Assembly (NCBI GenBank): GCA_963846185.1
Contig: CAWJVA010000013.1
Span: 16,905-80,904 of the forward strand
Length of the DNA: 64,000 bases
From: an uncultured Acidobacteriaceae bacterium
Lineage (GTDB): Bacteria > Acidobacteriota > Terriglobia > Bryobacterales > Bryobacteraceae
Direction: 5' to 3'
Below are positions 9,506 to 34,969 of this stretch, one piece after another. The first letter of the stretch is position 1; each line of letters starts with the position of its first letter. The notes beneath the pieces were generated by a model, which did no database searches, was not told the DNA's origin, and saw only the letters and a list, made by a program, of their open reading frames with translations. Position numbers and translations under genes: made by a program.

Positions 9506-11193
9506 CTACTTGGAACTCGAGCCCGCTTGTATCAACTGCTCGGCATGTCGCAGGGCCTCCGGCGTGATCTGCTCGCCGGAGAGCATACGGCCAATCTCAC
9601 GCGCTCTTTCCTCGCGATCAAGCTCTTCAATCTGCGTCGCGATTCGCCCCTTCCTCGCTTGCTTTGCTACCGCGAAGTGATGATCCGCGAACCCCGCGAT
9701 CTGGGCAAGGTGAGTTACGCAGATCACCTGGTTCGTTCGCGAGAGTGCCTTCAGTCGCTTGCCCACAGCCGCTGCCGCAGCTCCGCCCACGCCGGCATCC
9801 ACTTCGTCGAAGACGAGAGTTGGCATTCCGGCGTGTTTATCGGCAGCGCCAATCGCGGTCTTCAGCGCTAGTGCGATGCGCGACAATTCACCTCCGGAAG
9901 CGATCTTTTCGAACGGCTTCAGATCTTCGCCGCGATTCGGCGAAACCAGGAATGCGATCTGGTCCACTCCAGTGATTGTCCACTCGCCCTGTGTGACAGC
10001 AATTTGAAATTGCGTACCGCCCATCGCGAGGCTTTTCAGCTCGCTCTCCACCTGCTTGCCCAGCGAAGCCGCAGCGGCTCTCCGGCGCTCGCTTAGTTCC
10101 TTGGCGAGCTTTTCATAGCGCTGCGCCGCTTCTTCCTGCTGCCGTTTCCAACGTCGCGCGGTGCTCTGTTGCGTTTTCTACTTCGTCGATCTTGCGCGCA
10201 ACGTCGTCCCGAAAAGCCAGCACGTCGCCGAGAGTTCGTCCGTACTTCCTCTTCAAACGGTCCAATTCCTCGAGGCGGCTTTCTACATCTTCGAGGCGCC
10301 CCGGATCTCCCTCCAGCTTTCCAAGATAGTCTCGCAGCGCATAAGAAGCCTCTTCGATCAGTACGACTCGCCTGCCGCAGCGAGCCGGCTGTCTCATGCG
10401 AGCGTTCCGTCAATTCTCATCAAGCTCGTCAATACGCTTTAAGCGCCTGCCGCACCTGCGTGGCAGCGCTCTCAGGTGACTCGTACAGCAAGCTCGAACG
10501 AAGCGTTCGCGCTCTCCTGGAGCCGCGTTACGTTCTGTAAGATCTTCCGCTCCGCCTCCAAGTCCGCGTCTTCTTCCGGCTTCGGTTGGACGGCGTCGAT
10601 CTCTTTGCGCTGGAAACTCCACAAGTCGAGGAGCCTCAGCTTCTCCTGCTCATTGCTGGTGAGGTCATCGAGCCGTTCGCCCCAATTCGTGCCAGGCTGC
10701 GTAGGCTTCCGCCACCTGCTCGCGCAACTTCGCCGCGCCCGCAAATTCGTCCAGCAGCTCGCGCTGCTGTTGCGGAGCAAAGAGCAGCTGCTGCTCGTTC
10801 TGGCCGTGGATATCGCCGAGCGCGGGCGCGAGTTGCCGGAGGAACGCCGTTGTGACCGGGCGGTTGCCGACGAATGCGCGCGATTTGCCGCTAGCCGCGA
10901 TCTCCCGTTCTACAATCAACTCCTCTTCCGCGTGATCGATGCCGGCCTCCTCGAGCAAGTGCCGCCAATTCCGGCGTCTCAGGGACCGCAAAGATTCCGG
11001 AAACCCGGGCCCGCGTCTCGCCCGTCCGTACCATCTCCGCCGATGCCCGCGCGCCAAGCAGCAAGCTCAGAGAGTCCACGACAATGGACTTGCCGCTACC
11101 CGTCTCGCCGGTCAGAATATTGAGCCCTTCCTGGAACCGGATGCGGGCCTGCTCGACTACCGCATAGTTCTCAACCAGCAATTCCAGCAGCAT
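9506..11193 (-). CDS. recN: DNA repair protein RecN, frame-disrupted
   Basis: Fragments 10891-11193 (MLLELLVENYAVVEQARIRFQEGLNILTGETGSGKSIVVDSL), 10665-11057, 10472-10780, 10113-10397 and 9506-10051 (ASGGELSRIALALK.., LVFDEVDAGVGG) are colinear with RecN. Confidence 0.9.
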
Positions 11194-24146: not shown

Positions 24147-26106
24147 TCACCCGCGGAGCTTCCTGACGATCGCCTCCGCATCATACACGCATCCGCCCCA
24201 GATCCCGCCGCTCGCATGCTGCAGCGCCGCCCACAGCCGCGTATCCGCGGGAAGCGCCGGGTCCGGCCGCAAATCCGTCGCGCGGCCGCGCGCTTCAGCA
24301 GTCGCCGGTGGCCTTCTTCGGCATCGAACGTTCTCGCCATTCTCCCCGACGAAATTGACGTGACCTTCCAGCTTGTTGCGGTCAATCACAATCTCGATCA
24401 CATCGCCGTCGCGCAGCTTGCCCGATCGGTCCGCCCGCCAGCGCCTCCGGTGAAACATGCCCCATACACGCGCCGGTGGAAACGCCGCTGAACCGCGCAT
24501 CCGTGATCACGGCTACGTGCTTGCCAAACGGCAGATGCTTCAGCGCCGACGTGATCTGGTACGTCTCTTCCATGCCCGCGCCCATCGGCCCGCGGCAAAT
24601 CAGAACGCAGCACGTCGCCTTCCTTGATCCGCTGCTTCTTGATCGCGGCCATCGCGTCGTGCTCGGTGAGGAATACTCGGCCGGCCCGCGCATCCGGTAA
24701 ACGCCATCGTCGTCGACCACGCTGCGGATCGATGGACGTGCTCTTCACCACCGAGCCCTCCGGCGCCAGGTTGCCATGCGGGAAGCAAACCGTCGACGTC
24801 AAGCCCGCGCGTCCGCGCCGCATCGGGCGACATGATCACGTCGTCCGCATCCACTCCATCCAGCTCGCGCAGCTCGCTGCGCGGAACCGACACGCCGTTC
24901 CGAATTGCTCCCACCAATCGAGCATCGCGTCCAGCGTCTCGCCGGATACCGTCAGCGCCTTGGTATTCAGCAATCCCGCGCGCCGCAGATGCAGCATCAC
25001 TTCCGGCACGCCGCCCGCCAGAAACACCTGCACGGTCGGGATGATTTCGCGGCCCGTTCGGCAGTGCGTCCACCAGTGCGTGGCACGCTGCGGTTGATCC
25101 GGCTCCAGTCCGCGACCGTCGGCCGCGCGCAAGCCCGCCGCATGCGCAATCGCCGGAACGTGCAGCAGCAGGTTCGTCGAGCCGCCAAACGCCGCATGCA
25201 GCACCATCGCGTTTTCGATCGCGCTTGCCGTCACGATATCGCGCGTCGTATGCCCAGCTCCGCAGCCGCAGCAGCGCCGTCGCGGTCCGGCGCGCCATAT
25301 CGAGCCAACGCGCTGGCCCGAGGGCGCGAGCGCGGAATGCGTCAGCGTCAGGCCGAGCGCCTCCGCCACCACCTGCGAAGTCGCCGCCGTCCCGAGAAAC
25401 TGGCATCCGCCGCCCGGCGAAGCGCACGCCCGGCAGCCCGCCAGCGCCGCTTCTTCCAGCGAAATCTTCCCATGCGCAAAGCGCGCGCCGATGCGTCTGC
25501 ACTTTGCCGGCGTCTTCGCCGTGCTCCGGCATCAGCGTCACTCCGCCCGGAATCAGCGCGCAGGGCAGATCGCGCGTCCCGGCCAGCGCCATCATCATGG
25601 CGGGCAGGCCCTTGTCGCAAGTCGCCAATGCCGATCACGCCGCGCCCGCGTCGGCAGCGAACGGATCAGCCGGCGCAGCACGATCGCCGCGTCATTGCGA
25701 AAGGGCAGGGAATCGAACATGCCAGGCGTTCCCTGCGTGCGGCCGTCGCATGGGTCGGTGCAGGCTCCGGCAAACGGAATCGCGCCCAGGGCCTTCAACT
25801 CGCGCGCGGCTTCCGCCACCAGCAGCCCCACTTCCCAATGGCCGGTGTGATACCCGAGCGCGATCGGCGTCCCGTCTGGCGCCCGTACGCCGCCATGCGT
25901 GCTGAGAATCAGAACCTCGCTGCCGCCGAGCGCCTCCGGCTGCCCAGCCCATCCCGGCATTCTGCGTCAAGCCGAAGAGGTTGCCCGAAGGCTGGTTCCA
26001 GCAGCATTTCGGGCGTGATCGGCAGCGCTCCCTCCGGGCCCGCGCGCGTGCGTCCGCACATCGAAAATCCCAGGCCGTCGCCTGAATCGACACTCTTCAG
26101 GTCCAC
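24147..26106 (-). CDS. IlvD/Edd-family sugar-acid dehydratase (YjhG/YagF xylonate-dehydratase-like), heavily frame-disrupted
   Basis: Eight minus-strand fragments are colinear with the YjhG/YagF type as I recall it from memory. Matching segments are [165 protein letters not shown]. Confidence 0.8.
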
Positions 26107-26149: not shown

Positions 26150-26662
26150 ATCGTTTGCGCACGCCGCCGGTCGGCCATCTATCCCGGCTCCTTCGATCCT
26201 CTGACGAACGGCCACCTGGATCTGATCGCGCGCGGCGCGCGCCTTGTTCGACCACCTCATCGTAGCCGTTCTTCGGAACACCCAAAAGCAGCCGCTCTTT
26301 TCCGTCGAAGAGCGCATCGAAATGATCCGCGAAGCGATGCGCCGACTTGCCGAATGTCGAAGTGGATTCCTTCGACGGCCTTGCTGGTCGATTACGCCGC
26401 GCGCGCGCAATGCGAACGCGATCCTGCGCGGCATCCGCGCCATCTCCGATTACGAGATCGGAACTGCAGATGGCGCTGCATCAACCGCCGCATGCGCCCC
26501 GAAACCGAAACCGTTTTCTTGATGGCCAGCGAAGAGCACTCCTTCGTCAGTTCGCGCATGGTCAAGGAGATCATCACGCTCGGCGGCGACGTCTCGCCGT
26601 TTGTTCCGCCCGCGGTGCATCGGCCGGCTCGCGCAAAGCTTAAAGTCCAGCGCTTACGGTAA
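26150..26662 (+). CDS. coaD: phosphopantetheine adenylyltransferase, frame-disrupted; start uncertain
   Basis: AIYPGSFDPLTNGHLDLIARGARL lies in the tail of the 24905-26662 frame. FDHLIVAVLRNTQKQPLFSVEERIEMI is in 26244-26522. NAILRGIRAISDYEIE.. and TVFLMASEEHSFVSSRMVKEIITLGGDVSPFVPP follow. No canonical start codon is in frame upstream, so another indel near the 5' end is likely. Confidence 0.8.
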   Translation: MVCARRRSAIYPGSFDPLTNGHLDLIARGARLVRPPHRSRSSEHPKAAALFRRRAHRNDPRSDAPTCRMSKWIPSTALLVDYAARAQCERDPARHPRHLRLRDRNCRWRCINRRMRPETETVFLMASEEHSFVSSRMVKEIITLGGDVSPFVPPAVHRPARAKLKVQRLR

Positions 26663-26675
26663 ATTGAAAGTTAAT

Positions 26676-27870
26676 ATGCAAGCCACCGCTGAAATAGCCG
26701 AACGTATCTCCACGATCAGTGTTTCTTCCACGATGAAGGTCTCGGCCGATGCGGACCGCCTGCGCCGCGAAGGCGTCGACGTCGTCGATTTCGGCGCTGG
26801 CGAGCCGGATTTCCCGACGCCCGCCAACATCAAGCAGGCCGCCATCGACGCGATCGATGCCAACTTCACCAAGTACACCAACGCCGGCGGAACGCCGGAA
26901 CTGCGCGAAGCGATTTGCGAGCGGCATCGCGCTCGATTTCGGTACCAACTACTCCCGTGCCGAGTGCATGGTCACGGTCGGCGGCAAGCACGCCATCTTC
27001 AACCTGATCCAGGCGCTGGTCAACCCCGGCGATGAAGTCATCATCCCCGTTCCTTACTGGGTCACTTACAAAGACGTCGTGAATTACGCGGGCGGCGTTT
27101 GCGTTTTCGTCGAAACCGACGAAAGCACCGGCTTCGAAGTCACTGCCGAGATGATCGAGCGGCACATCACTCCGAAAACCAAGCTGGTCATCATCAACTC
27201 GCCTTCCAATCCGAGCGGCGCCGTTCTAGCCGCGACAGAATTTCGCAGAGATCTTCGAACTGACTTCGAAGCGCGGCATTCTTTTGATGACCGACGAGTG
27301 CTACTGCCATTTCCTCTATGAGGCTAAGCCGTTCTCCATCGCCGCGCTGCCCGGGCGCGAAGGAGAACGGTGGTGGTTGCCGGCTCGCTGTCGAAAACGT
27401 ACGCGATGACGGGTTGGCGCGTCGGCTTTGCGCTCGCGCCCGCGCCGATCATCGGCGCCATGATGAAGCTGCAAAGCCACAGCACCTCGAATCCCACTTC
27501 CATCTGCGCAGAAAGCCGCCGTCGAAGCCATGCGTGGTCCGCAGGATTCCGTTCCCGTGATGCTGGCCGAATACCGCCGCCGCCGCGATTTCGTGATCGA
27601 GCGGCTGCGCGCGATTCCGGGCGTTTCGATCGTGACGCCCAAGGGCGCTTTCTACGCTTATCCGAACATCAGCGTGCGCCTACGGCGGCGCCAGTCAAGA
27701 ACTCGCTCGAGTTCGCAACGGAGCTGCTCGCAGAAGCGCACGTTGCCGTCGTTCCCGGCGAAGCGTTCGGAACGAACGATCACGTTCGCATCTCCTACGC
27801 CACCTCGATGAAGGAACTGGAGCGCGGGCTCGACCGCATCCACAAGTTCATTGACGGCCTGCGCGCGTAA
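26676..27870 (+). CDS. pyridoxal-phosphate-dependent (aspartate-type, class I) aminotransferase, frame-disrupted
   Basis: Fragments 26601-27035 (from Met at 26676: MQATAEIAERISTISVSSTMKV..DVVDFGAGEPDFPTP), 26749-27321 (VIIPVPYWVTYKD.., VIINSPSNPSGAV) and 27370-27870 (GSLSKTYAMTGWRVGF, the PLP lysine motif) belong together. Confidence 0.85.
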
Positions 27871-29644: not shown

Positions 29645-30610
29645 TCACTCGGGCACGCCGTTCAAAATCTGTTGCCAAGCGCCCACCACTTTGTTGCGAA
29701 CCCTTTCCTGCAGTAGCTGTTTGATCGTGCTGTAACGCTCACTGGAACCCGCTGCACTATCCGCCTCCGGCAGGTACGGCGGATCTTTCTGGAGCACATG
29801 CCCGTGCCATATGTCATACTCCAGGTGCACCTGATGCGTGGGTAGAAGGTCCTGGCGATTGTGCGCCACCACGAATAGGATGCGGTCCTCTTTGTCCGGC
29901 TCGCTCTCAAGCAGATCCGCCACTGTCGTGTATTCGAAAAAGCAGTAGTTCTTCTTTCCTTGCGGAGGATGAAACATGATGTTTTGGATCAGTTGTACAA
30001 ACACCATGGAATTGCGGCACGCTTCCCGCAGCTTCTGTTCCGTCATGGAATTGTCAAATTCCGAATCGGGAAAAAAGAACCCGTTATGGTCGGCGGACTT
30101 CACGATTAACCGGTAAACGGCCTTCGCTAATAAGTTCTCCTTCTGCCGGTCCGCGCCTTTCCACGTCTCTTGCGATAGTTCCTTGACGATGAAATACCGG
30201 TAGGCAGTGTTGATCGGGTTGTCTCCGGCCACGTTCGGATACCTGGTTGTGAAGGAGAAGAAGATGTCGTATTTCAGGCAGATCTTTCGCCATGCCTTAT
30301 CGAAATATCCTCGTTGAGCTCTCGTCCAGCCAGGCCGGTATCCCTTGACGAGCAAACGATGAAGGAGATCGCGGTCCTGCTCTGTACGCCTGGCTTTAAT
30401 CAATAAGCACAGTGCGGCTCTCGCCTGTTCGCGCGTAGTCTGCCCGTCTTTCAGGTAAGTCTCAACCTGTACTTTGGCTTTTTCGACAAGATTCCGATCT
30501 GCGTCAAAAGTACCTTTTCCAGCTTCCCTTTGGCAGAGCCGTTTGTATTCCTCGCTGCTGCGGATTTTCGCGACAGGCGTTTTCGCGTATATCTCAATTA
30601 AAGCTTCCAT
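29645..30610 (-). CDS. hypothetical protein with helical N-domain and divergent TIR-like domain (island gene 5)
   Basis: Intact 321-aa ORF whose ATG overlaps the upstream ATPase gene by 13 nt. Residues ~113-255 follow TIR strand/helix order: YDIFFSF (betaA), GFFFPDSEF (betaB), SMVFVQLIQ (betaC). NYCFFEY sits where TIR domains carry S.WC..E (Glu codon 29933-29935). This assignment is by eye only. Confidence 0.5.
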   Translation of the reverse strand: MEALIEIYAKTPVAKIRSSEEYKRLCQREAGKGTFDADRNLVEKAKVQVETYLKDGQTTREQARAALCLLIKARRTEQDRDLLHRLLVKGYRPGWTRAQRGYFDKAWRKICLKYDIFFSFTTRYPNVAGDNPINTAYRYFIVKELSQETWKGADRQKENLLAKAVYRLIVKSADHNGFFFPDSEFDNSMTEQKLREACRNSMVFVQLIQNIMFHPPQGKKNYCFFEYTTVADLLESEPDKEDRILFVVAHNRQDLLPTHQVHLEYDIWHGHVLQKDPPYLPEADSAAGSSERYSTIKQLLQERVRNKVVGAWQQILNGVPE

Positions 30611-32430
30611 TGAGTGCTTTTCGTTGAGGCTTCTGTCTGTCTCTTGCTGTCCGGCCGCAAGCGCTCCAACTCGAGTTCTAATTCCGCAATACGTTGCTTC
30701 AGTTGGTCGATGTAGGCGTTTGTCTCTTCCTGCCGCAGCCGCTGGTCGCGCACCTCCGCCGCGCGCCGCACTAACCGGTCATCACGCTCGAGCATGTGTA
30801 ACCGCTCCTCTTCGCTCGCCGAGCGCCGCGTCTTCGCCGCCAGCCGCTCAATCTCACGCGCTCGCTCGCTTCCGTCATCCATGGTTGCCTTAGTTGCATA
30901 TTCCAGGTACAACCGGTCGACATCATCGACTTCAAACAGCTTCCTATAAATCTCCGGCGAACTTACACCAAGATAGTCGCGGCCATCGCCTGGGTCTACC
31001 CAGAAACGATCCGTCTGCTTGTTGCGGCGCAGTACGGCCACCTCTCCGAAATCGCAGCCGGCCACAATCGCGGGACTGTGCGCCGAAACGAAGAATTGCA
31101 CGTTCGGAAACTTTCCCGTGAGCAGACCCAGGATCTTCAGCTGCCAGCTCGGGTGGAGGTGCGCGTCGATTTCATCGATGATAACGATGCCCGGCGTCGT
31201 CAACACGTCTGTATGACTTCCCCCGGGTCGCAGCGAACGCAGAAAGCTGTAAATCAATCCGAAAATTGCGATGACGGAAAAGGTGCCTTGCGACGCCGCT
31301 TGTATTGGCAGCGGGGTGTCACGGCTCCCCGCCGTGCGCACCAGAATTTCGAAACCGGTCCGGCCCGTCCTCCGGATGTTCGCGAACGCGAACTGATCGT
31401 CTTCCGTCAGGTTCCGCACCACCTCCTGAATGAGAGAGAAGATAGGCAGATCGAAACCGCGCAGCGGGCTCTCCAGGTAATCAATGGCTATCTGGTAAAG
31501 GAACTCCGTCACGACATTTTCATAAGGCTCCTGGGTCAGATAGTTCTTTGCGCCTGCCGCAGCGAGCGGCTCGCTGCCGGTTGGCGAACTCGCAACCGTC
31601 GTGACCGAGCGATTGACGAATCTCGCATCGGGGATCGCAAGCAGCGGAATCTTGCCCACCGCATCTTCAAAATACGTCGGGTCTCGAATAATCTTCTCGA
31701 GATTGCCGTCCCGGGTAAGACTTACGATCAGTCGAGGCTCGGGCCGCTTGCTCCGGCTACCGGAGGCTCCTCCGCCCGGAAACAGATAAGCGCTGTATTC
31801 GAGATTTCTCTGAATCACCGCCGCCAGCGTGCGCAACAGCAGCGTTTTGCCATATCCGTTCTTCCCGAGCAGCACGTTTACCCGCGGCGCGAAATCATAG
31901 CGCCCATCTTCGAAGAAGCGCACTCCGTTCCAGCCGAAAGAGTGCAAATAGATCGCCGGCCCCATATTGCGGTAGAACAAGCGCTGCTCATGTTGCTCGC
32001 GCTCTGCGCGTACATTCTCGACATCTCGGTAATTAACCGTGTTCGCGATCTGCGTTTCAGATGCGATCGCGCGGGTTTCGAGCGCAAGGCGCAACATGTA
32101 TCGCGCGGCCGCCCAGCAAACAGGAGCCATCAAGATCAGAACTAAACCGGCTAGCGCGGTCAAGAAATTCGGCAAGCCGGGATCTGCCTTGCGATACAGC
32201 GGCAAAATGATGCCGACCGTCATGACGAGAGCACCCAGAATAAGCAGATCTAAAGAAGCGGCAGCAAACCGCAACGGCAGATTGAACAACTTGTCAGCCG
32301 CTATCTCCTCGTCCGAACGAAGCCTGAATTCCCGGCTTGTTTCCCGGAAAGACCAGATCGCAAATCGCCGCGCGTACGATGGGCGCGGGAGCTCTTTCTC
32401 CTTATTCGTCTCGGTCGGCGGTGCTGCCAT
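30598..32430 (-). CDS. membrane-anchored ABC/SMC-type (AAA_21-like) ATPase with C-terminal coiled coil (island gene 4)
   Basis: Intact 610-aa ORF. Two N-terminal TM helices are present (LDLLILGALVMTVGIILPL; FLTALAGLVLILMAPVCWAAA). ATPase motifs are Walker A LLGKNGYGKT (Lys codon 31846-31848), signature-like AASQGTFS, Walker B/D-loop IVIIDEIDAHLHP and H-loop VSAHSP. The last ~90 aa are a heptad-rich charged coiled coil. Confidence 0.8.
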   Translation of the reverse strand: MAAPPTETNKEKELPRPSYARRFAIWSFRETSREFRLRSDEEIAADKLFNLPLRFAAASLDLLILGALVMTVGIILPLYRKADPGLPNFLTALAGLVLILMAPVCWAAARYMLRLALETRAIASETQIANTVNYRDVENVRAEREQHEQRLFYRNMGPAIYLHSFGWNGVRFFEDGRYDFAPRVNVLLGKNGYGKTLLLRTLAAVIQRNLEYSAYLFPGGGASGSRSKRPEPRLIVSLTRDGNLEKIIRDPTYFEDAVGKIPLLAIPDARFVNRSVTTVASSPTGSEPLAAAGAKNYLTQEPYENVVTEFLYQIAIDYLESPLRGFDLPIFSLIQEVVRNLTEDDQFAFANIRRTGRTGFEILVRTAGSRDTPLPIQAASQGTFSVIAIFGLIYSFLRSLRPGGSHTDVLTTPGIVIIDEIDAHLHPSWQLKILGLLTGKFPNVQFFVSAHSPAIVAGCDFGEVAVLRRNKQTDRFWVDPGDGRDYLGVSSPEIYRKLFEVDDVDRLYLEYATKATMDDGSERAREIERLAAKTRRSASEEERLHMLERDDRLVRRAAEVRDQRLRQEETNAYIDQLKQRIAELELELERLRPDSKRQTEASTKSTQWKL

Positions 32431-32433
32431 CCC

Positions 32434-33234
32434 TCAAACCTTCTCGTCCAGCAGCCACTGCACAATCGCGGAGTACGGCTGAAATGGCAGATCGGCAGGC
32501 ATCCTGTTCCGCGGGTTGCCCTTCCACGCGTCCTCGAGCCCTACTAGATCTCCCGATGCCCGAGCCTCTGTTAAAAATTCCGCGTCCCGCTCTCGAACTC
32601 TATTCAGCCAGAGGCGCCCTTTCCATCGCTCCGGCGATTCCATCAATCTTTCGGCCGCGCCACCGCCGCTTGTCACTGCGTAGACACGCGCCTCGCCGCT
32701 CTTGCCGTCCCATTCGTGGCGCATGTCGAGAAACATCGCTGCTTCGTCGCGCACCCCCTCCATGCCACCCACGGCGATCATGGCTTTGGGCGGTCTCAGT
32801 TTGTTCCGTTCGCTGATTTCCTTCGGTAGTTCGGGCCCCAACAACATCCAACGCCGCATCAGCCGAAGGCTCTCTTCCTGCTCGCTCATATCAGAGCCAG
32901 GCGGCATGATTGGTGTCCACTCGATTGCCGACCAGCCCAGGCGGTGCATCAACCACGTCTCATCCGGCAGTTTGCCCTTATAGAATTCCGATTGGAACGT
33001 CACGACCGGTCGGACCACGCGCCCCGGATCTTCCGGAAAATACTCCCCGGCAATGGATGCAATCAGCGGCGAAACGCTTGGATGTCCTCCAAACAAGAGC
33101 CGGCCCTTGCGCGCAAATACCGCCCGCGCAATGCTCACGATCGCTTCTTCGATCTCGACGGGTTTCGCGTCCTTGGTCCATCCCTCGCGCCATGGCACGC
33201 TGCCCGAGAGAAAAATAATGTCGCCGGGCTTCAT
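32434..33234 (-). CDS. stand-alone SLOG/LOG-like Rossmannoid protein (island gene 3)
   Basis: Intact 266-aa ORF whose ATG overlaps the upstream TIR gene stop (ATGA). Motifs are IIFLSGSVP (first strand plus Gly/Ser loop), LLFGGHPSVSPLI, and AMIAVGGMEGVRDEAAMF. The last matches the GGxxGxxxE signature of LOG/DprA-type (SLOG) folds (32743-32769). The call is by motif only. Confidence 0.55.
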   Translation of the reverse strand: MKPGDIIFLSGSVPWREGWTKDAKPVEIEEAIVSIARAVFARKGRLLFGGHPSVSPLIASIAGEYFPEDPGRVVRPVVTFQSEFYKGKLPDETWLMHRLGWSAIEWTPIMPPGSDMSEQEESLRLMRRWMLLGPELPKEISERNKLRPPKAMIAVGGMEGVRDEAAMFLDMRHEWDGKSGEARVYAVTSGGGAAERLMESPERWKGRLWLNRVRERDAEFLTEARASGDLVGLEDAWKGNPRNRMPADLPFQPYSAIVQWLLDEKV

Positions 33235-34580
33235 TTCCAGGTTCCCGATTTCACCCGCCGAGCGAAATCCGGCAGATTGCCTTCGTCAAACGAAAAGCAT
33301 CCCGTCAGGTCCTGCAGCCACTCCAGGCGCTCCAGCCGCTCAGGCTCCAGCGCCGCTCGCGGTCCGACGATCAAGCCTTGTGAGCTCCCGCCCTGCGCCG
33401 CCTGTGCCGCGTACAGCCCCTGGAAATCGTCCACCTCAGGCGGCCTTGTCACGATCCAGATCAATCGTCCTCCGGAGGTTGCCTGCACGTGCAGTGGTCC
33501 CACTGCGCCCAGCGGAGCTGTTATGCCTTCTACCGCTAGCGCCGCAAGTAGATCCCCGCGCAGCCGGTTCCGCCGGCTGAATAGCGCGTTCGCGTGCGCC
33601 ACCTTGATGTCGGCCACCACGCGCTTCAGGGCATCCTTCGTCAATTCCCCCCAGCACTTCATCATTTGGCCCGGATGGTCGGGATCTTTCACATCTTCTC
33701 CGTCGGGCTTCTCGAAATCGGCTTTGCCGAGCGGCGGATGTGCTGCCGACGCGCCCGATGGAATCGCATCTTCGTCTTTGACGTCCGGCATGCGCAGGCT
33801 GACCAGACCGAGCCGGTGCCGCTTCGTGAAGTCGATCTCATGCTGCGTCCATTTCGAGTTCTTCAGATTTTTCGACTCGAGCAGCACCACCATCGATTTG
33901 TCCATCAACTCCTGATTCAGCCGCCGTTGGAAGTCGTACCCGGGCGGAATGGAGAAGCGGTCGAGAAATACCTCGAATCCCGCGTGCGTCAGCGCATCGA
34001 ACAACTGAAGAGCCAGCGGCAAGGTTTCCAAACGCCGGTAGCTGATGAACACCCGGTTGGCAGCCGACGTCACCTCCGCGCGCGACAAAATTCCGGGTAA
34101 CGCCTCCGCAATTTTCTCCTGCCACAGGCTGGCGTTGATGCGTTGCAGTAGATGCTCGGCATCCTCGAGAATCGCCTTCTCGAACAGCTGCTCCCGCTCG
34201 ATCGCAGGCAGCACCACCATCACGCACGCGGCGTGCTTATCGGATTCCCAGCTCTTGTACCATGCTTCGTCGCGAAACTTCCGATCGCTGCTGCCCACCA
34301 GCACCAGCACTTTGCGCCGGTTCGCATACTTCTCCGGCTTCATTTCGTCGGGCTCCACGGGGCAGCTGACCGGCTTTACCTCAACTGCTGGGCTCGAACC
34401 GCGCAGTACCATTTCGATCTCATCCGCCAGTTCCCTGACATAAGCTTTGCCTTGAGAGCCGCCAGAAGACACCAGGCAGATCCAACTCCGGGTTGCGGCC
34501 GGTACGCCATTCAGTTCGAGACAAGAGAACGAGCCGTCTGCATTCTCCACCTGCAGGATGATCTCGCCTAGTTCAGCCAT
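33231..34580 (-). CDS. TIR-domain protein with unassigned N- and C-terminal domains (island gene 2)
   Basis: The ORF track gives 33231-34661. I prefer ATG 34578-34580 (MAELGEI..), which overlaps the upstream gene by 13 nt. The central TIR domain (~33777-34055) reads RVFISYRRLETLPLALQLFDALTHAGFEVFLDRFSIPPGYDF..SMVVLLESKNLKNSKWTQHEIDF, with the conserved Glu codon at 33837-33839. Confidence 0.8.
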   Translation of the reverse strand: MAELGEIILQVENADGSFSCLELNGVPAATRSWICLVSSGGSQGKAYVRELADEIEMVLRGSSPAVEVKPVSCPVEPDEMKPEKYANRRKVLVLVGSSDRKFRDEAWYKSWESDKHAACVMVVLPAIEREQLFEKAILEDAEHLLQRINASLWQEKIAEALPGILSRAEVTSAANRVFISYRRLETLPLALQLFDALTHAGFEVFLDRFSIPPGYDFQRRLNQELMDKSMVVLLESKNLKNSKWTQHEIDFTKRHRLGLVSLRMPDVKDEDAIPSGASAAHPPLGKADFEKPDGEDVKDPDHPGQMMKCWGELTKDALKRVVADIKVAHANALFSRRNRLRGDLLAALAVEGITAPLGAVGPLHVQATSGGRLIWIVTRPPEVDDFQGLYAAQAAQGGSSQGLIVGPRAALEPERLERLEWLQDLTGCFSFDEGNLPDFARRVKSGTWK

Positions 34581-34969
34581 CCCCACCCCCCGACCGCTAC
34601 CGCCACAATCAAAACCGGCAGATGCACCAGCCAGACCGCCGGCCGCCAGAACGCAGCCCACGAATCGCGAAGCTTCACCTCGACCTTAAAAGAAAAGTCA
34701 GGATTGTCGTCCTTCACGGCGCTTGCCACTCCAAAGATTGCCCGAAACTTCGTTTCGAGCGCAAGGTAGTACGCATCCTGCACCCAGAAACAGATCGCTG
34801 GCAGAACAGCTACTAAGGCCGTGCGTAGATCTCGGTCCTCCGCGCTTGCGAGGCCGATAATCGCCGCTCCCAGTCCAACGCTCCACTTCCGGCAGGTAAA
34901 TTGATTGCCTGCCATTCGCCGGATCACCGCCTGCAGCATGTCCAGGTACTTCAAGCGTTTTGCGCCCAC
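34568..34969 (-). CDS. small three-TM membrane protein (island gene 1)
   Basis: Intact 133-aa ORF with a GTG start. An alternative start is Met11 at 34937-34939. Hydrophobic segments are WSVGLGAAIIGLA, ALVAVLPAICFWVQDAYYL and AVWLVHLPVLIVAVAVGGWGW. I recognise no family. Confidence 0.6.
   Translation of the reverse strand: MGAKRLKYLDMLQAVIRRMAGNQFTCRKWSVGLGAAIIGLASAEDRDLRTALVAVLPAICFWVQDAYYLALETKFRAIFGVASAVKDDNPDFSFKVEVKLRDSWAAFWRPAVWLVHLPVLIVAVAVGGWGWLN

Follow-up and report, generated by a model that had tools for sequence, protein, structure and literature searches.

What does a membrane hairpin do on a defence-type ATPase whose closest characterized relatives, PtuA and AriA, are soluble? 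This question is raised by a gene of an uncultured Acidobacteriaceae bacterium, located at 30598..32430 on the minus strand of a stretch of 64,000 nucleotides (NCBI GenBank assembly GCA_963846185.1, contig CAWJVA010000013.1, positions 16,905 to 80,904), which is referred to here as the window. A preliminary description of this DNA had reported an ATPase of a normally soluble group with two N-terminal membrane helices, and the soluble relatives bear out that remark on the group. The gene product is a PtuA-like ATP-binding cassette (ABC) ATPase, and the gene directly downstream encodes a 321-residue protein, p321, which is probably a diverged TIR-like protein. The reading proposed here is that of a Septu-like ATPase/TIR module tethered to the membrane by the hairpin, which probably also adds a membrane-damaging output. 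This composite reading is given an even chance of being correct as a whole. A defence function of the module is in itself quite probable, and the role of the hairpin as an output element is more tentative, being put at somewhat less than even.

The open reading frame (ORF) at 30598..32430 codes for 610 amino acids, and its ABC ATPase head (residues 160-500, nucleotides 30931..31953, as delimited by motif positions and alignment) contains all motifs needed for hydrolysis. These are Walker A GKNGYGKT (residues 189-196, nucleotides 31843-31866), the Q-loop LTQEP (residues 298-302, nucleotides 31525-31539), the signature SQGTFS (residues 380-385, nucleotides 31276-31293), the Walker B/D-loop IIDEIDAHLHP (residues 417-427, nucleotides 31150-31182), which is the DEIDxHLHP type described earlier, and the H-loop SAHSP (residues 449-453, nucleotides 31072-31086). 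All five are complete and are invariant across an alignment of 37 homologues, to which the head shows a mean identity of 57%. The earlier assignment to the defence-style AAA_15/AAA_21 ATPases holds, as both Pfam models score above their gathering cut-offs: AAA_21 (PF13304) with 65.4 bits against 27, and AAA_15 (PF13175) with 45.9 bits against 32.1. In addition, PADLOC models of PtuA match the protein with E values down to 1e-34. The NCBIfam equivalog model of PtuA (NF041760) reaches 109.4 bits against a cut-off of 500 and aligns solely to the C-terminal half of the head. When a profile of the ATPase family was compared with the PDB, the best matches were PtuA of Septu and of the retrons Ec78 and Ec83 (E down to 1e-27), followed by AriA of the PARIS system (E of about 1e-10) and then an OLD-family protein. 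The AlphaFold2 model, built from the 37-sequence alignment, has a mean predicted local distance difference test (pLDDT) score of 87.4. In Foldseek, PtuA chains make up all of the best 50 matches of this model (E = 3e-17 to 6e-14), with TM-scores of 0.44-0.59 normalized to the target. By profile and by fold, the product is an intact PtuA-like ABC ATPase of the Septu and retron I-A kind.

The N-terminus of this ATPase differs from that of its soluble relatives, and the protein is almost certainly anchored in the membrane. A tail of 52 residues (nucleotides 32275..32430), recognized from composition, alignment and the AlphaFold2 model, contains 10 lysine or arginine and 9 aspartate or glutamate residues, has pLDDT values of about 88-95 at residues 21-50, and carries the acidic juxtamembrane motif RSDEEIAADKLF. 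The tail is followed by transmembrane helix 1 (residues 53-79, nucleotides 32194..32274), a loop of nine residues, RKADPGLPN, which is presumably periplasmic (residues 80-88, nucleotides 32167..32193), and transmembrane helix 2 (residues 89-113, nucleotides 32092..32166). The Kyte-Doolittle maxima over 19 residues are 2.40 for the first and 2.25 for the second segment, and two peaks of at least 2.2 were obtained in 1 of 2000 shuffles of the ATPase sequence. The summed insertion energies on the Hessa scale are +0.7 kcal/mol for helix 1 and -0.3 kcal/mol for helix 2, and the next best segment of the protein has a value of +3.2. AlphaFold2 models helices at residues 47-80 and 86-131, of which the latter runs on into the cytoplasmic linker. 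In the 37 homologues, the hairpin segments keep a mean hydropathy of 1.6-1.75 at a residue identity of only about 20%. Hydropathy, insertion energy, shuffles, the model and the conserved hydrophobicity in homologues all agree, and therefore the two helices that the preliminary description had placed at 32101-32268, behind about 50 cytoplasmic residues, were located correctly; they are delimited here as 32092-32274. Both ends of the ATPase should lie in the cytoplasm, because the head must reach cytoplasmic ATP.

A Pfam scan of the hairpin region gave nothing significant, and the SLATT profile did not match the N-terminal 104 residues at E values up to 5. The same region (residues 1-104, nucleotides 32119-32430) gave a weak match to CyanoTRADDas_TM, a domain with two transmembrane helices from cyanobacterial conflict systems (14.3 bits against a cut-off of 24.3, E = 0.046). 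The acidic motif before helix 1 (residues 31-52, nucleotides 32275-32340) recurs in the closest homologues as LSDEE[IV]xSEPxY. A profile of this motif matches six loci, which have the small membrane protein gene M50A in all six cases and a TIR and SLOG gene pair in five; both are neighbouring genes discussed below. The association of the tail motif with these accessory genes is probably phylogenetic, because it is limited to the closest relatives.

The homologues of the ATPase, surveyed in the best 120 database matches, provide the main indication of what the N-terminus may be for. Most homologues with 40-64% identity share the same layout, with one or two hydrophobic segments followed by Walker A at residue 175-205 or so, and the hairpin form is the commonest architecture in this ATPase clade. 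The hairpin noted earlier is thus real, while its supposed oddity does not hold up, as dozens of homologues keep it. Other homologues with an equally similar head have SLATT_1, SLATT_3 or DUF4231 at the N-terminus. Further N-terminal domains are TIR, pentapeptide repeats with TIR, a class-3 lipase (Lipase_3), a Tle1-like phospholipase, a Ser/Thr kinase, a DO-GTPase, TPR repeats and a BNR-type propeller. The N-terminus of this ATPase is therefore a swappable slot. Suicide effectors of the classic kind (SLATT, TIR, lipases) make up most of the alternative domains, and for this reason the hairpin is likely to be more than an anchor. The preliminary description had proposed either an effector or a scaffold, and the pattern of domain swaps points tentatively to an output role for the N-terminus.

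In the same set of homologues, a few candidates were set aside. Two 'headless' ATPases (P0039 and P0072), considered as a minimal system, are truncated gene calls or come from frameshifted long-read assemblies. P0019, considered as a fusion of the ATPase with its partner, is a homologue with two transmembrane helices that has a DUF4062 domain (residues 464-546) inserted in a loop of the ATPase head. The p321 profile had no match in any of the 120 ATPases.

The gene for p321 (29645..30610, minus strand) overlaps the stop of the ATPase gene by 13 nucleotides. Its distribution was studied in 164 loci from genomes and metagenomes, in which the ORFs were searched with profiles seeded from the five proteins of the window's gene cluster (29645-34969), and partners were counted in the 129 informative, non-duplicate loci. 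In 68 of these 129 loci, p321 lies directly downstream of the ATPase, and it is present in all 19 informative loci in which the ATPase has a short, hairpin-bearing N-terminus. The loci with both genes span Acidobacteriota, Bacteroidota, Pseudomonadota, Verrucomicrobiota and Bacillota. The loci lacking p321 contain more distant ATPases, and most of them have in its position a protein of 210-300 residues with the motif CxxC...CGYCE; those that were scanned are PtuB HNH nucleases. Because PtuB takes the position of p321 next to the more distant ATPases, this clade is a Septu-type branch of ATPases that has exchanged PtuB for another partner. The ATPase and p321 appear to be the conserved two-gene core of a rare defence-type module, and it is very probable that a PtuA-like ATPase and an obligate TIR-like partner are combined here. 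The preliminary description had coupled the ATPase to TIR and SLOG genes. Both are indeed located directly upstream, but they are facultative, and the constant partner is the downstream p321.

The nature of p321 is not obvious from domain libraries, as the window copy has no match in Pfam, NCBIfam or PADLOC, including no HNH match. A word-indexed search yielded 12 relatives. When 1.84 billion representatives were searched exhaustively with a profile, 399 clusters at 50% identity were obtained, which makes it a small family; nearly all clusters are stand-alone proteins of 310-330 residues. In an alignment of 30 sequences, F117, S119, N159, N221, E226 (nucleotides 29933-29935) and W268 are invariant, and the motifs D-x-F-(F/L)-S-(F/Y)-T and N-(Y/W)-C-x-x-E were identified. 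Pfam TIR_2 matches 10 of these 30 family members (best E = 1e-5), and a profile extended from the canonical TIR protein of the neighbouring gene matches several, for example, the one of locus L127 at 2e-12. The AlphaFold2 model (pLDDT 91) consists of a helical N-domain (residues 1-110, nucleotides 30281-30610) and an alpha/beta domain (residues 111-321) that resembles a diverged TIR domain. The top PDB matches of this model in Foldseek are the TIR domains of RUN1, AbTir, SARM1, L6 and Toll-like receptors, with a probability of about 1 and TM-scores of up to 0.69 normalized to the target, yet with E values of just 0.01-0.1. A profile-profile alignment (hhalign) with the neighbouring TIR family, weak in itself, puts E226 on the catalytic glutamate. 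From sequence and model together, p321 can be regarded with moderate confidence as a diverged TIR-like protein. In L001, whose ATPase is the closest relative of the one in the window (64% identity), and also in L002 and L040, an IS21 element (rve and IstB; 9818-14201 in L001) splits the p321 homologue in two.

The connection between both proteins may be formed by the C-terminal helical extension of the ATPase (residues 501-610, nucleotides 30601..30930), which was delimited by composition and the AlphaFold2 model. It is modelled as two short helices followed by a single helix of 72 residues (538-609), and the final 110 residues include 24 lysine or arginine and 26 aspartate or glutamate residues. 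An earlier proposal of a charged coiled coil of about 90 residues is right as far as a long charged helix is concerned. The coiled coil itself is plausible, with a heptad periodicity that is clear at residues 570-595 or so alone. In the PtuA-PtuB structures, the helical domain of PtuB is gripped between two C-terminal extensions of PtuA, and its release is controlled by ATP (PMC12819146). As the extension of PtuA docks its partner, the putative coiled coil of the window's ATPase is more likely a partner-binding element, and by this analogy residues 501-610 are likely the equivalent of the PtuA extension.

Upstream of the ATPase, three more genes on the minus strand complete the cluster of five. 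The SLOG gene (32434..33234; 266 residues; Pfam LD_cluster3, 9e-18) ends 3 nucleotides before the ATPase start, and its best NCBIfam match is ThcA of Thoeris type III, with 101.6 bits, just under the cut-off of 110. The TIR gene (33231..34580; Pfam TIR_2, 6e-15) codes for 449 residues counted from Met28. Its best NCBIfam match is ThcB4, with 177 bits, below the cut-off of 220, and it matches ThsB of PADLOC at 7e-27 and M50B of PADLOC weakly (E = 0.012). F178, S180, Y181, W244 and E248 are invariant in this protein family, and the catalytic glutamate is kept. The listed ORF extends to 34661, and from its earliest start, a GTG at 34661, it would overlap the next gene by 94 nucleotides (34568-34661); the alignment of homologues supports a start at Met28 (nucleotide 34580), which gives an overlap of 13 nucleotides. 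This next gene (34568..34969) codes for a small membrane protein of 133 residues that belongs to the PADLOC candidate family PDC-M50A (E = 9e-26). It has one strong C-terminal hydrophobic helix, and a Pfam scan of the window's M50A and its homologues gave nothing significant. The junctions in the cluster are overlaps of 13, 4 and 13 nucleotides and one gap of 3 nucleotides. A scan of the cluster for promoters and terminators found nothing above chance, and no tRNA gene was found adjoining it. M50A, TIR and SLOG are optional neighbours and, judged by these profile matches, together resemble Thoeris type III.

The pair of TIR and SLOG genes occurs beside 11 of 34 membrane-bearing ATPase-p321 pairs and beside 0 of 21 pairs lacking membrane segments (Fisher p = 0.004, uncorrected for phylogeny). 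M50A is found beside 11 of 34 and 2 of 21 of these pairs, respectively, and also adjoins ATPase-p321 pairs lacking TIR and SLOG. The two genes are located upstream of the ATPase in the window and in L003, L005, L008, L010, L087, L094, L107 and L178, and downstream in L013, L088 and L180. The window holds one canonical TIR protein along with the TIR-like p321, and extra ThsB-like TIR genes are present in the relatives L001 and L180.

Several loci show further rearrangements around these genes. In L088, two tandem M50A paralogues are located between p321 and the TIR-SLOG pair (9598-10678). L180 (299-2928) and L181 (12696-18270) contain extra pairs of TIR and SLOG (LD_cluster2) genes within 5-8 kb of ATPase-p321, and the same TIR-rich islands hold a ThsB-like TIR, a TIR-acetyltransferase fusion and patatin genes. 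In general, the surroundings of the relatives are mobile or defence-like, with integrases, insertion sequence elements, patatin and extra TIR genes. In the window, the cluster is flanked by ordinary metabolic genes. Two genes elsewhere in the window are broken, unlike the five-gene cluster, which is intact. At 26600-27870 on the plus strand, an aminotransferase-like gene is spread over several frames (ORFs 26601..27035, 26749..27321, 27370..27870 and 27530..27811) and is either a pseudogene or the result of indel errors in the assembly. At 24150-26000 on the minus strand, a gene resembling dihydroxy-acid/phosphogluconate dehydratases runs over several overlapping frames, in a region where the G+C content rises to 0.70 (25-26 kb).

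Based on the above, a possible mechanism can be outlined. By analogy with PtuA-PtuB, dimers or oligomers of the ATPase would hold the helical N-domain of p321 via the C-terminal helices of residues 501-610, and binding and hydrolysis of ATP would act as a switch that is released by a phage cue. As the domain swaps suggest, oligomerization of the heads could gather the hairpins, possibly together with M50A, to breach or depolarize the membrane, and p321 would meanwhile cleave nicotinamide adenine dinucleotide (NAD+) or make a signal. The optional M50A-TIR-SLOG genes would form a Thoeris type III-like module that probably passes a nucleotide signal on to the membrane-bound form; a signal made by a TIR protein would most naturally be received by the SLOG protein.

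Several observations weigh against this proposal. The sequence of the hairpin is poorly conserved and has no significant likeness to SLATT or other pore families, so that a plain anchor fits equally well, and some of the N-terminal swaps (TPR, propeller, pentapeptide) resemble sensors and not effectors. The p321 of the window itself matches no TIR model at E values up to 1, and its profile-profile alignment with the neighbouring TIR family has an E value of 0.09, although it is in register. When only loci with large flanks are counted, the association of TIR and SLOG with membrane-bearing ATPases, uncorrected for phylogeny, is 9/21 against 0/6 (p = 0.07). In L001, M50A-TIR-SLOG and the ATPase are convergent and are therefore on separate transcripts.

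As an alternative, the hairpin could do no more than position a Septu-like switch near the membrane, where it might meet, for example, incoming phage DNA or membrane-proximal cues, and p321, having taken over from the HNH nuclease PtuB, would do all of the killing through NAD+ depletion. Such a division of labour fits the constancy of p321 at the exact place that PtuB has in sister clades, the alignment of its glutamate with the catalytic glutamate of TIR NADases, and a hairpin that is conserved solely in its hydrophobicity. However, it would then be redundant for the ATPase N-terminus to have gained SLATT, lipase, phospholipase and TIR domains repeatedly, and the TIR-ATPase fusions keep p321 as well; a hairpin that is an anchor only is considered somewhat unlikely. 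The convergent genes of L001, together with the reversed order in L013 and L088, would also suit two independent systems in one operon, a Thoeris type III-like TIR and SLOG system (with or without M50A) and an ATPase-p321 system, which would lie together as in defence islands and have at most synergy and no cross-talk. TIR and SLOG are absent from most ATPase-p321 pairs, type III Thoeris has been reported as several TIR proteins and a SLOG protein without an ATPase (preprint 10.64898/2025.12.03.692087), and a single operon with two signalling systems, Pycsar and type IV Thoeris, has been published before (PMC13069673). Two independent systems are nevertheless considered unlikely, as TIR and SLOG are found beside membrane-bearing ATPases alone, the pairing recurs at 37-64% ATPase identity in three gene orders, the junctions in the window are overlaps or a gap of 3 nucleotides, and the SLOG protein itself lacks a killing domain.

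Another way to connect all genes is a Thoeris logic in which the ABC ATPase is the receptor, and ATPase-p321 would then represent a new class of Thoeris-like systems. In that case, p321 would make a signal derived from ADP-ribose, which the ABC head would bind in its nucleotide sandwich site; the heads would dimerize and activate the fused N-terminal effector. Here, the hairpins would assemble into a membrane pore, while relatives would have SLATT, TIR, lipase or phospholipase outputs, and the ThcB4-like TIR, where present, would act through SLOG. A constant TIR-like gene and a constant core with a variable effector indeed form the pattern of signal-activated effectors, and Table S1 of a preprint (10.64898/2025.12.03.692087) lists a putative Thoeris class whose effector is an 'ATPase'. 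This possibility is nonetheless quite improbable, since every hydrolysis motif is kept, as in the ordinary ATP-driven PtuA, the TIRs of that class are just generically similar, and its ATPase could not be identified. Finally, the gene could have a housekeeping function, either in an ABC transporter, as its nucleotide-binding subunit, or as an SMC-like chromosome protein, and the weak matches to ABC_tran and SMC_N could be taken as a sign of this. Both are below their cut-offs (15.8 bits against 25 and 27.2 bits against 40), the best matches in sequence and fold are PtuA and AriA, and the family is patchy and rare. No permease gene adjoins any of about 70 homologues, and two helices cannot form a transporter domain. 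An SMC/Rad50-type ATPase was likewise rejected, as the modelled head has no antiparallel coiled coil inserted between its halves and the long helix is C-terminal, and the label 'SMC-type' given to the protein earlier should be dropped. A housekeeping role is thus extremely improbable.

For the membrane-tethered Septu-like module favoured here, no published description of the ATPase-p321 pair was found. It is not a new category of system; it is a variant on the Septu chassis with Thoeris-type neighbours. The family is rare and environmental, and its members come mostly from soil Acidobacteriota and Bacteroidota. The PLSDB plasmids contained no relative of either protein, and viral contigs yielded distant generic ATPases alone. 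The nearest database relatives of the TIRs from the 'ATPase' effector class (Table S1, preprint 10.64898/2025.12.03.692087) adjoin TPR/patatin or unannotated genes, and no ATPase was seen next to them. An 'AAA' partner has been described in one TIR system of E. coli (PMC11350192) and could not be linked to the ATPase-p321 family.

If the proposed reading is true, the Septu ATPase chassis is modular and not bound to a nuclease: one branch would have taken up a TIR-like protein in place of PtuB and made its N-terminus available to outputs directed at the membrane, NAD+ and lipids. This would join two immune logics that have been treated apart, namely effectors held by an ATPase, as in Septu and PARIS, and TIR signalling, as in Thoeris. 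In addition, p321 would represent a TIR family of about 400 clusters at 50% identity that is unrecognized by the domain libraries searched, and the module would offer a candidate membrane executor for Thoeris type III-like operons, whose killing mode is not known. It also allows one to ask directly if a membrane lesion can be gated by an ATPase of the ABC type. The value of this case lies in a well-defined hypothesis, not in a result.

The locus shares features with several known systems. The PADLOC candidate system PDC-M50, for which no mention was found in the papers searched, consists of a small membrane protein (M50A) and a TIR-like protein (M50B). The cluster begins with a gene that clearly belongs to M50A, and this family adjoins TIR or TIR-like genes here as well. 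PDC-M50 is, however, a two-gene candidate system, and the TIR protein of the window resembles M50B only weakly. Tmn (Gao_Tmn) is also a membrane-embedded phage-defence NTPase with its output at the membrane (PMC13001434). It is a single-gene NTPase of the YobI/KAP type, in contrast to the ABC-type, PtuA-like ATPase with a TIR-like partner described here. In PARIS, AriA is an ABC ATPase of the AAA_15/21 group that holds a partner effector, as proposed for the window's ATPase; AriA is soluble, its partner AriB is a Toprim nuclease, and the likeness is far weaker than that to PtuA. SLATT and other effectors with two or four transmembrane helices, which are used in CBASS, Pycsar and Thoeris types II and VII, have in common with this locus a two-helix membrane module beside SLOG and TIR genes, and homologous ATPases carry true SLATT_1 or SLATT_3 domains in the position of the hairpin. 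The hairpin itself has no detectable sequence likeness to SLATT, and it is fused to an ABC ATPase instead of a small ligand-binding domain.

Type III Thoeris consists of several TIR proteins and a SLOG protein, and its mode of signalling is unknown (preprint 10.64898/2025.12.03.692087). The upstream genes are most similar to ThcB4 and ThcA of this type (a ThcA SLOG and several ThcB TIRs, as in P. aeruginosa L0872), and relatives of the locus have additional ThsB-like TIR genes, one of which resembles TIR2 of type III. On the other hand, the ThcA and ThcB4 scores are below the curated cut-offs, the window has a single canonical TIR, and the operon adds three components that have not been reported for type III, namely the ATPase with two transmembrane helices, its TIR-like partner and a small membrane protein. 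The system to which the core of the locus can best be compared is Septu PtuA-PtuB, including the PtuAB of the type I-A retrons Ec78/Eco7 and Ec83. The differences are the TIR-like partner in place of the HNH nuclease PtuB, the N-terminal membrane hairpin, replaced by other domains in relatives, and an NCBIfam PtuA score far below its cut-off. The similarities include the family and fold of the ATPase head, the two-gene unit with the partner encoded directly downstream, the helical C-terminal extension, which in PtuA docks the partner (PMC12819146), and the presence of PtuB itself in sister clades of this ATPase.

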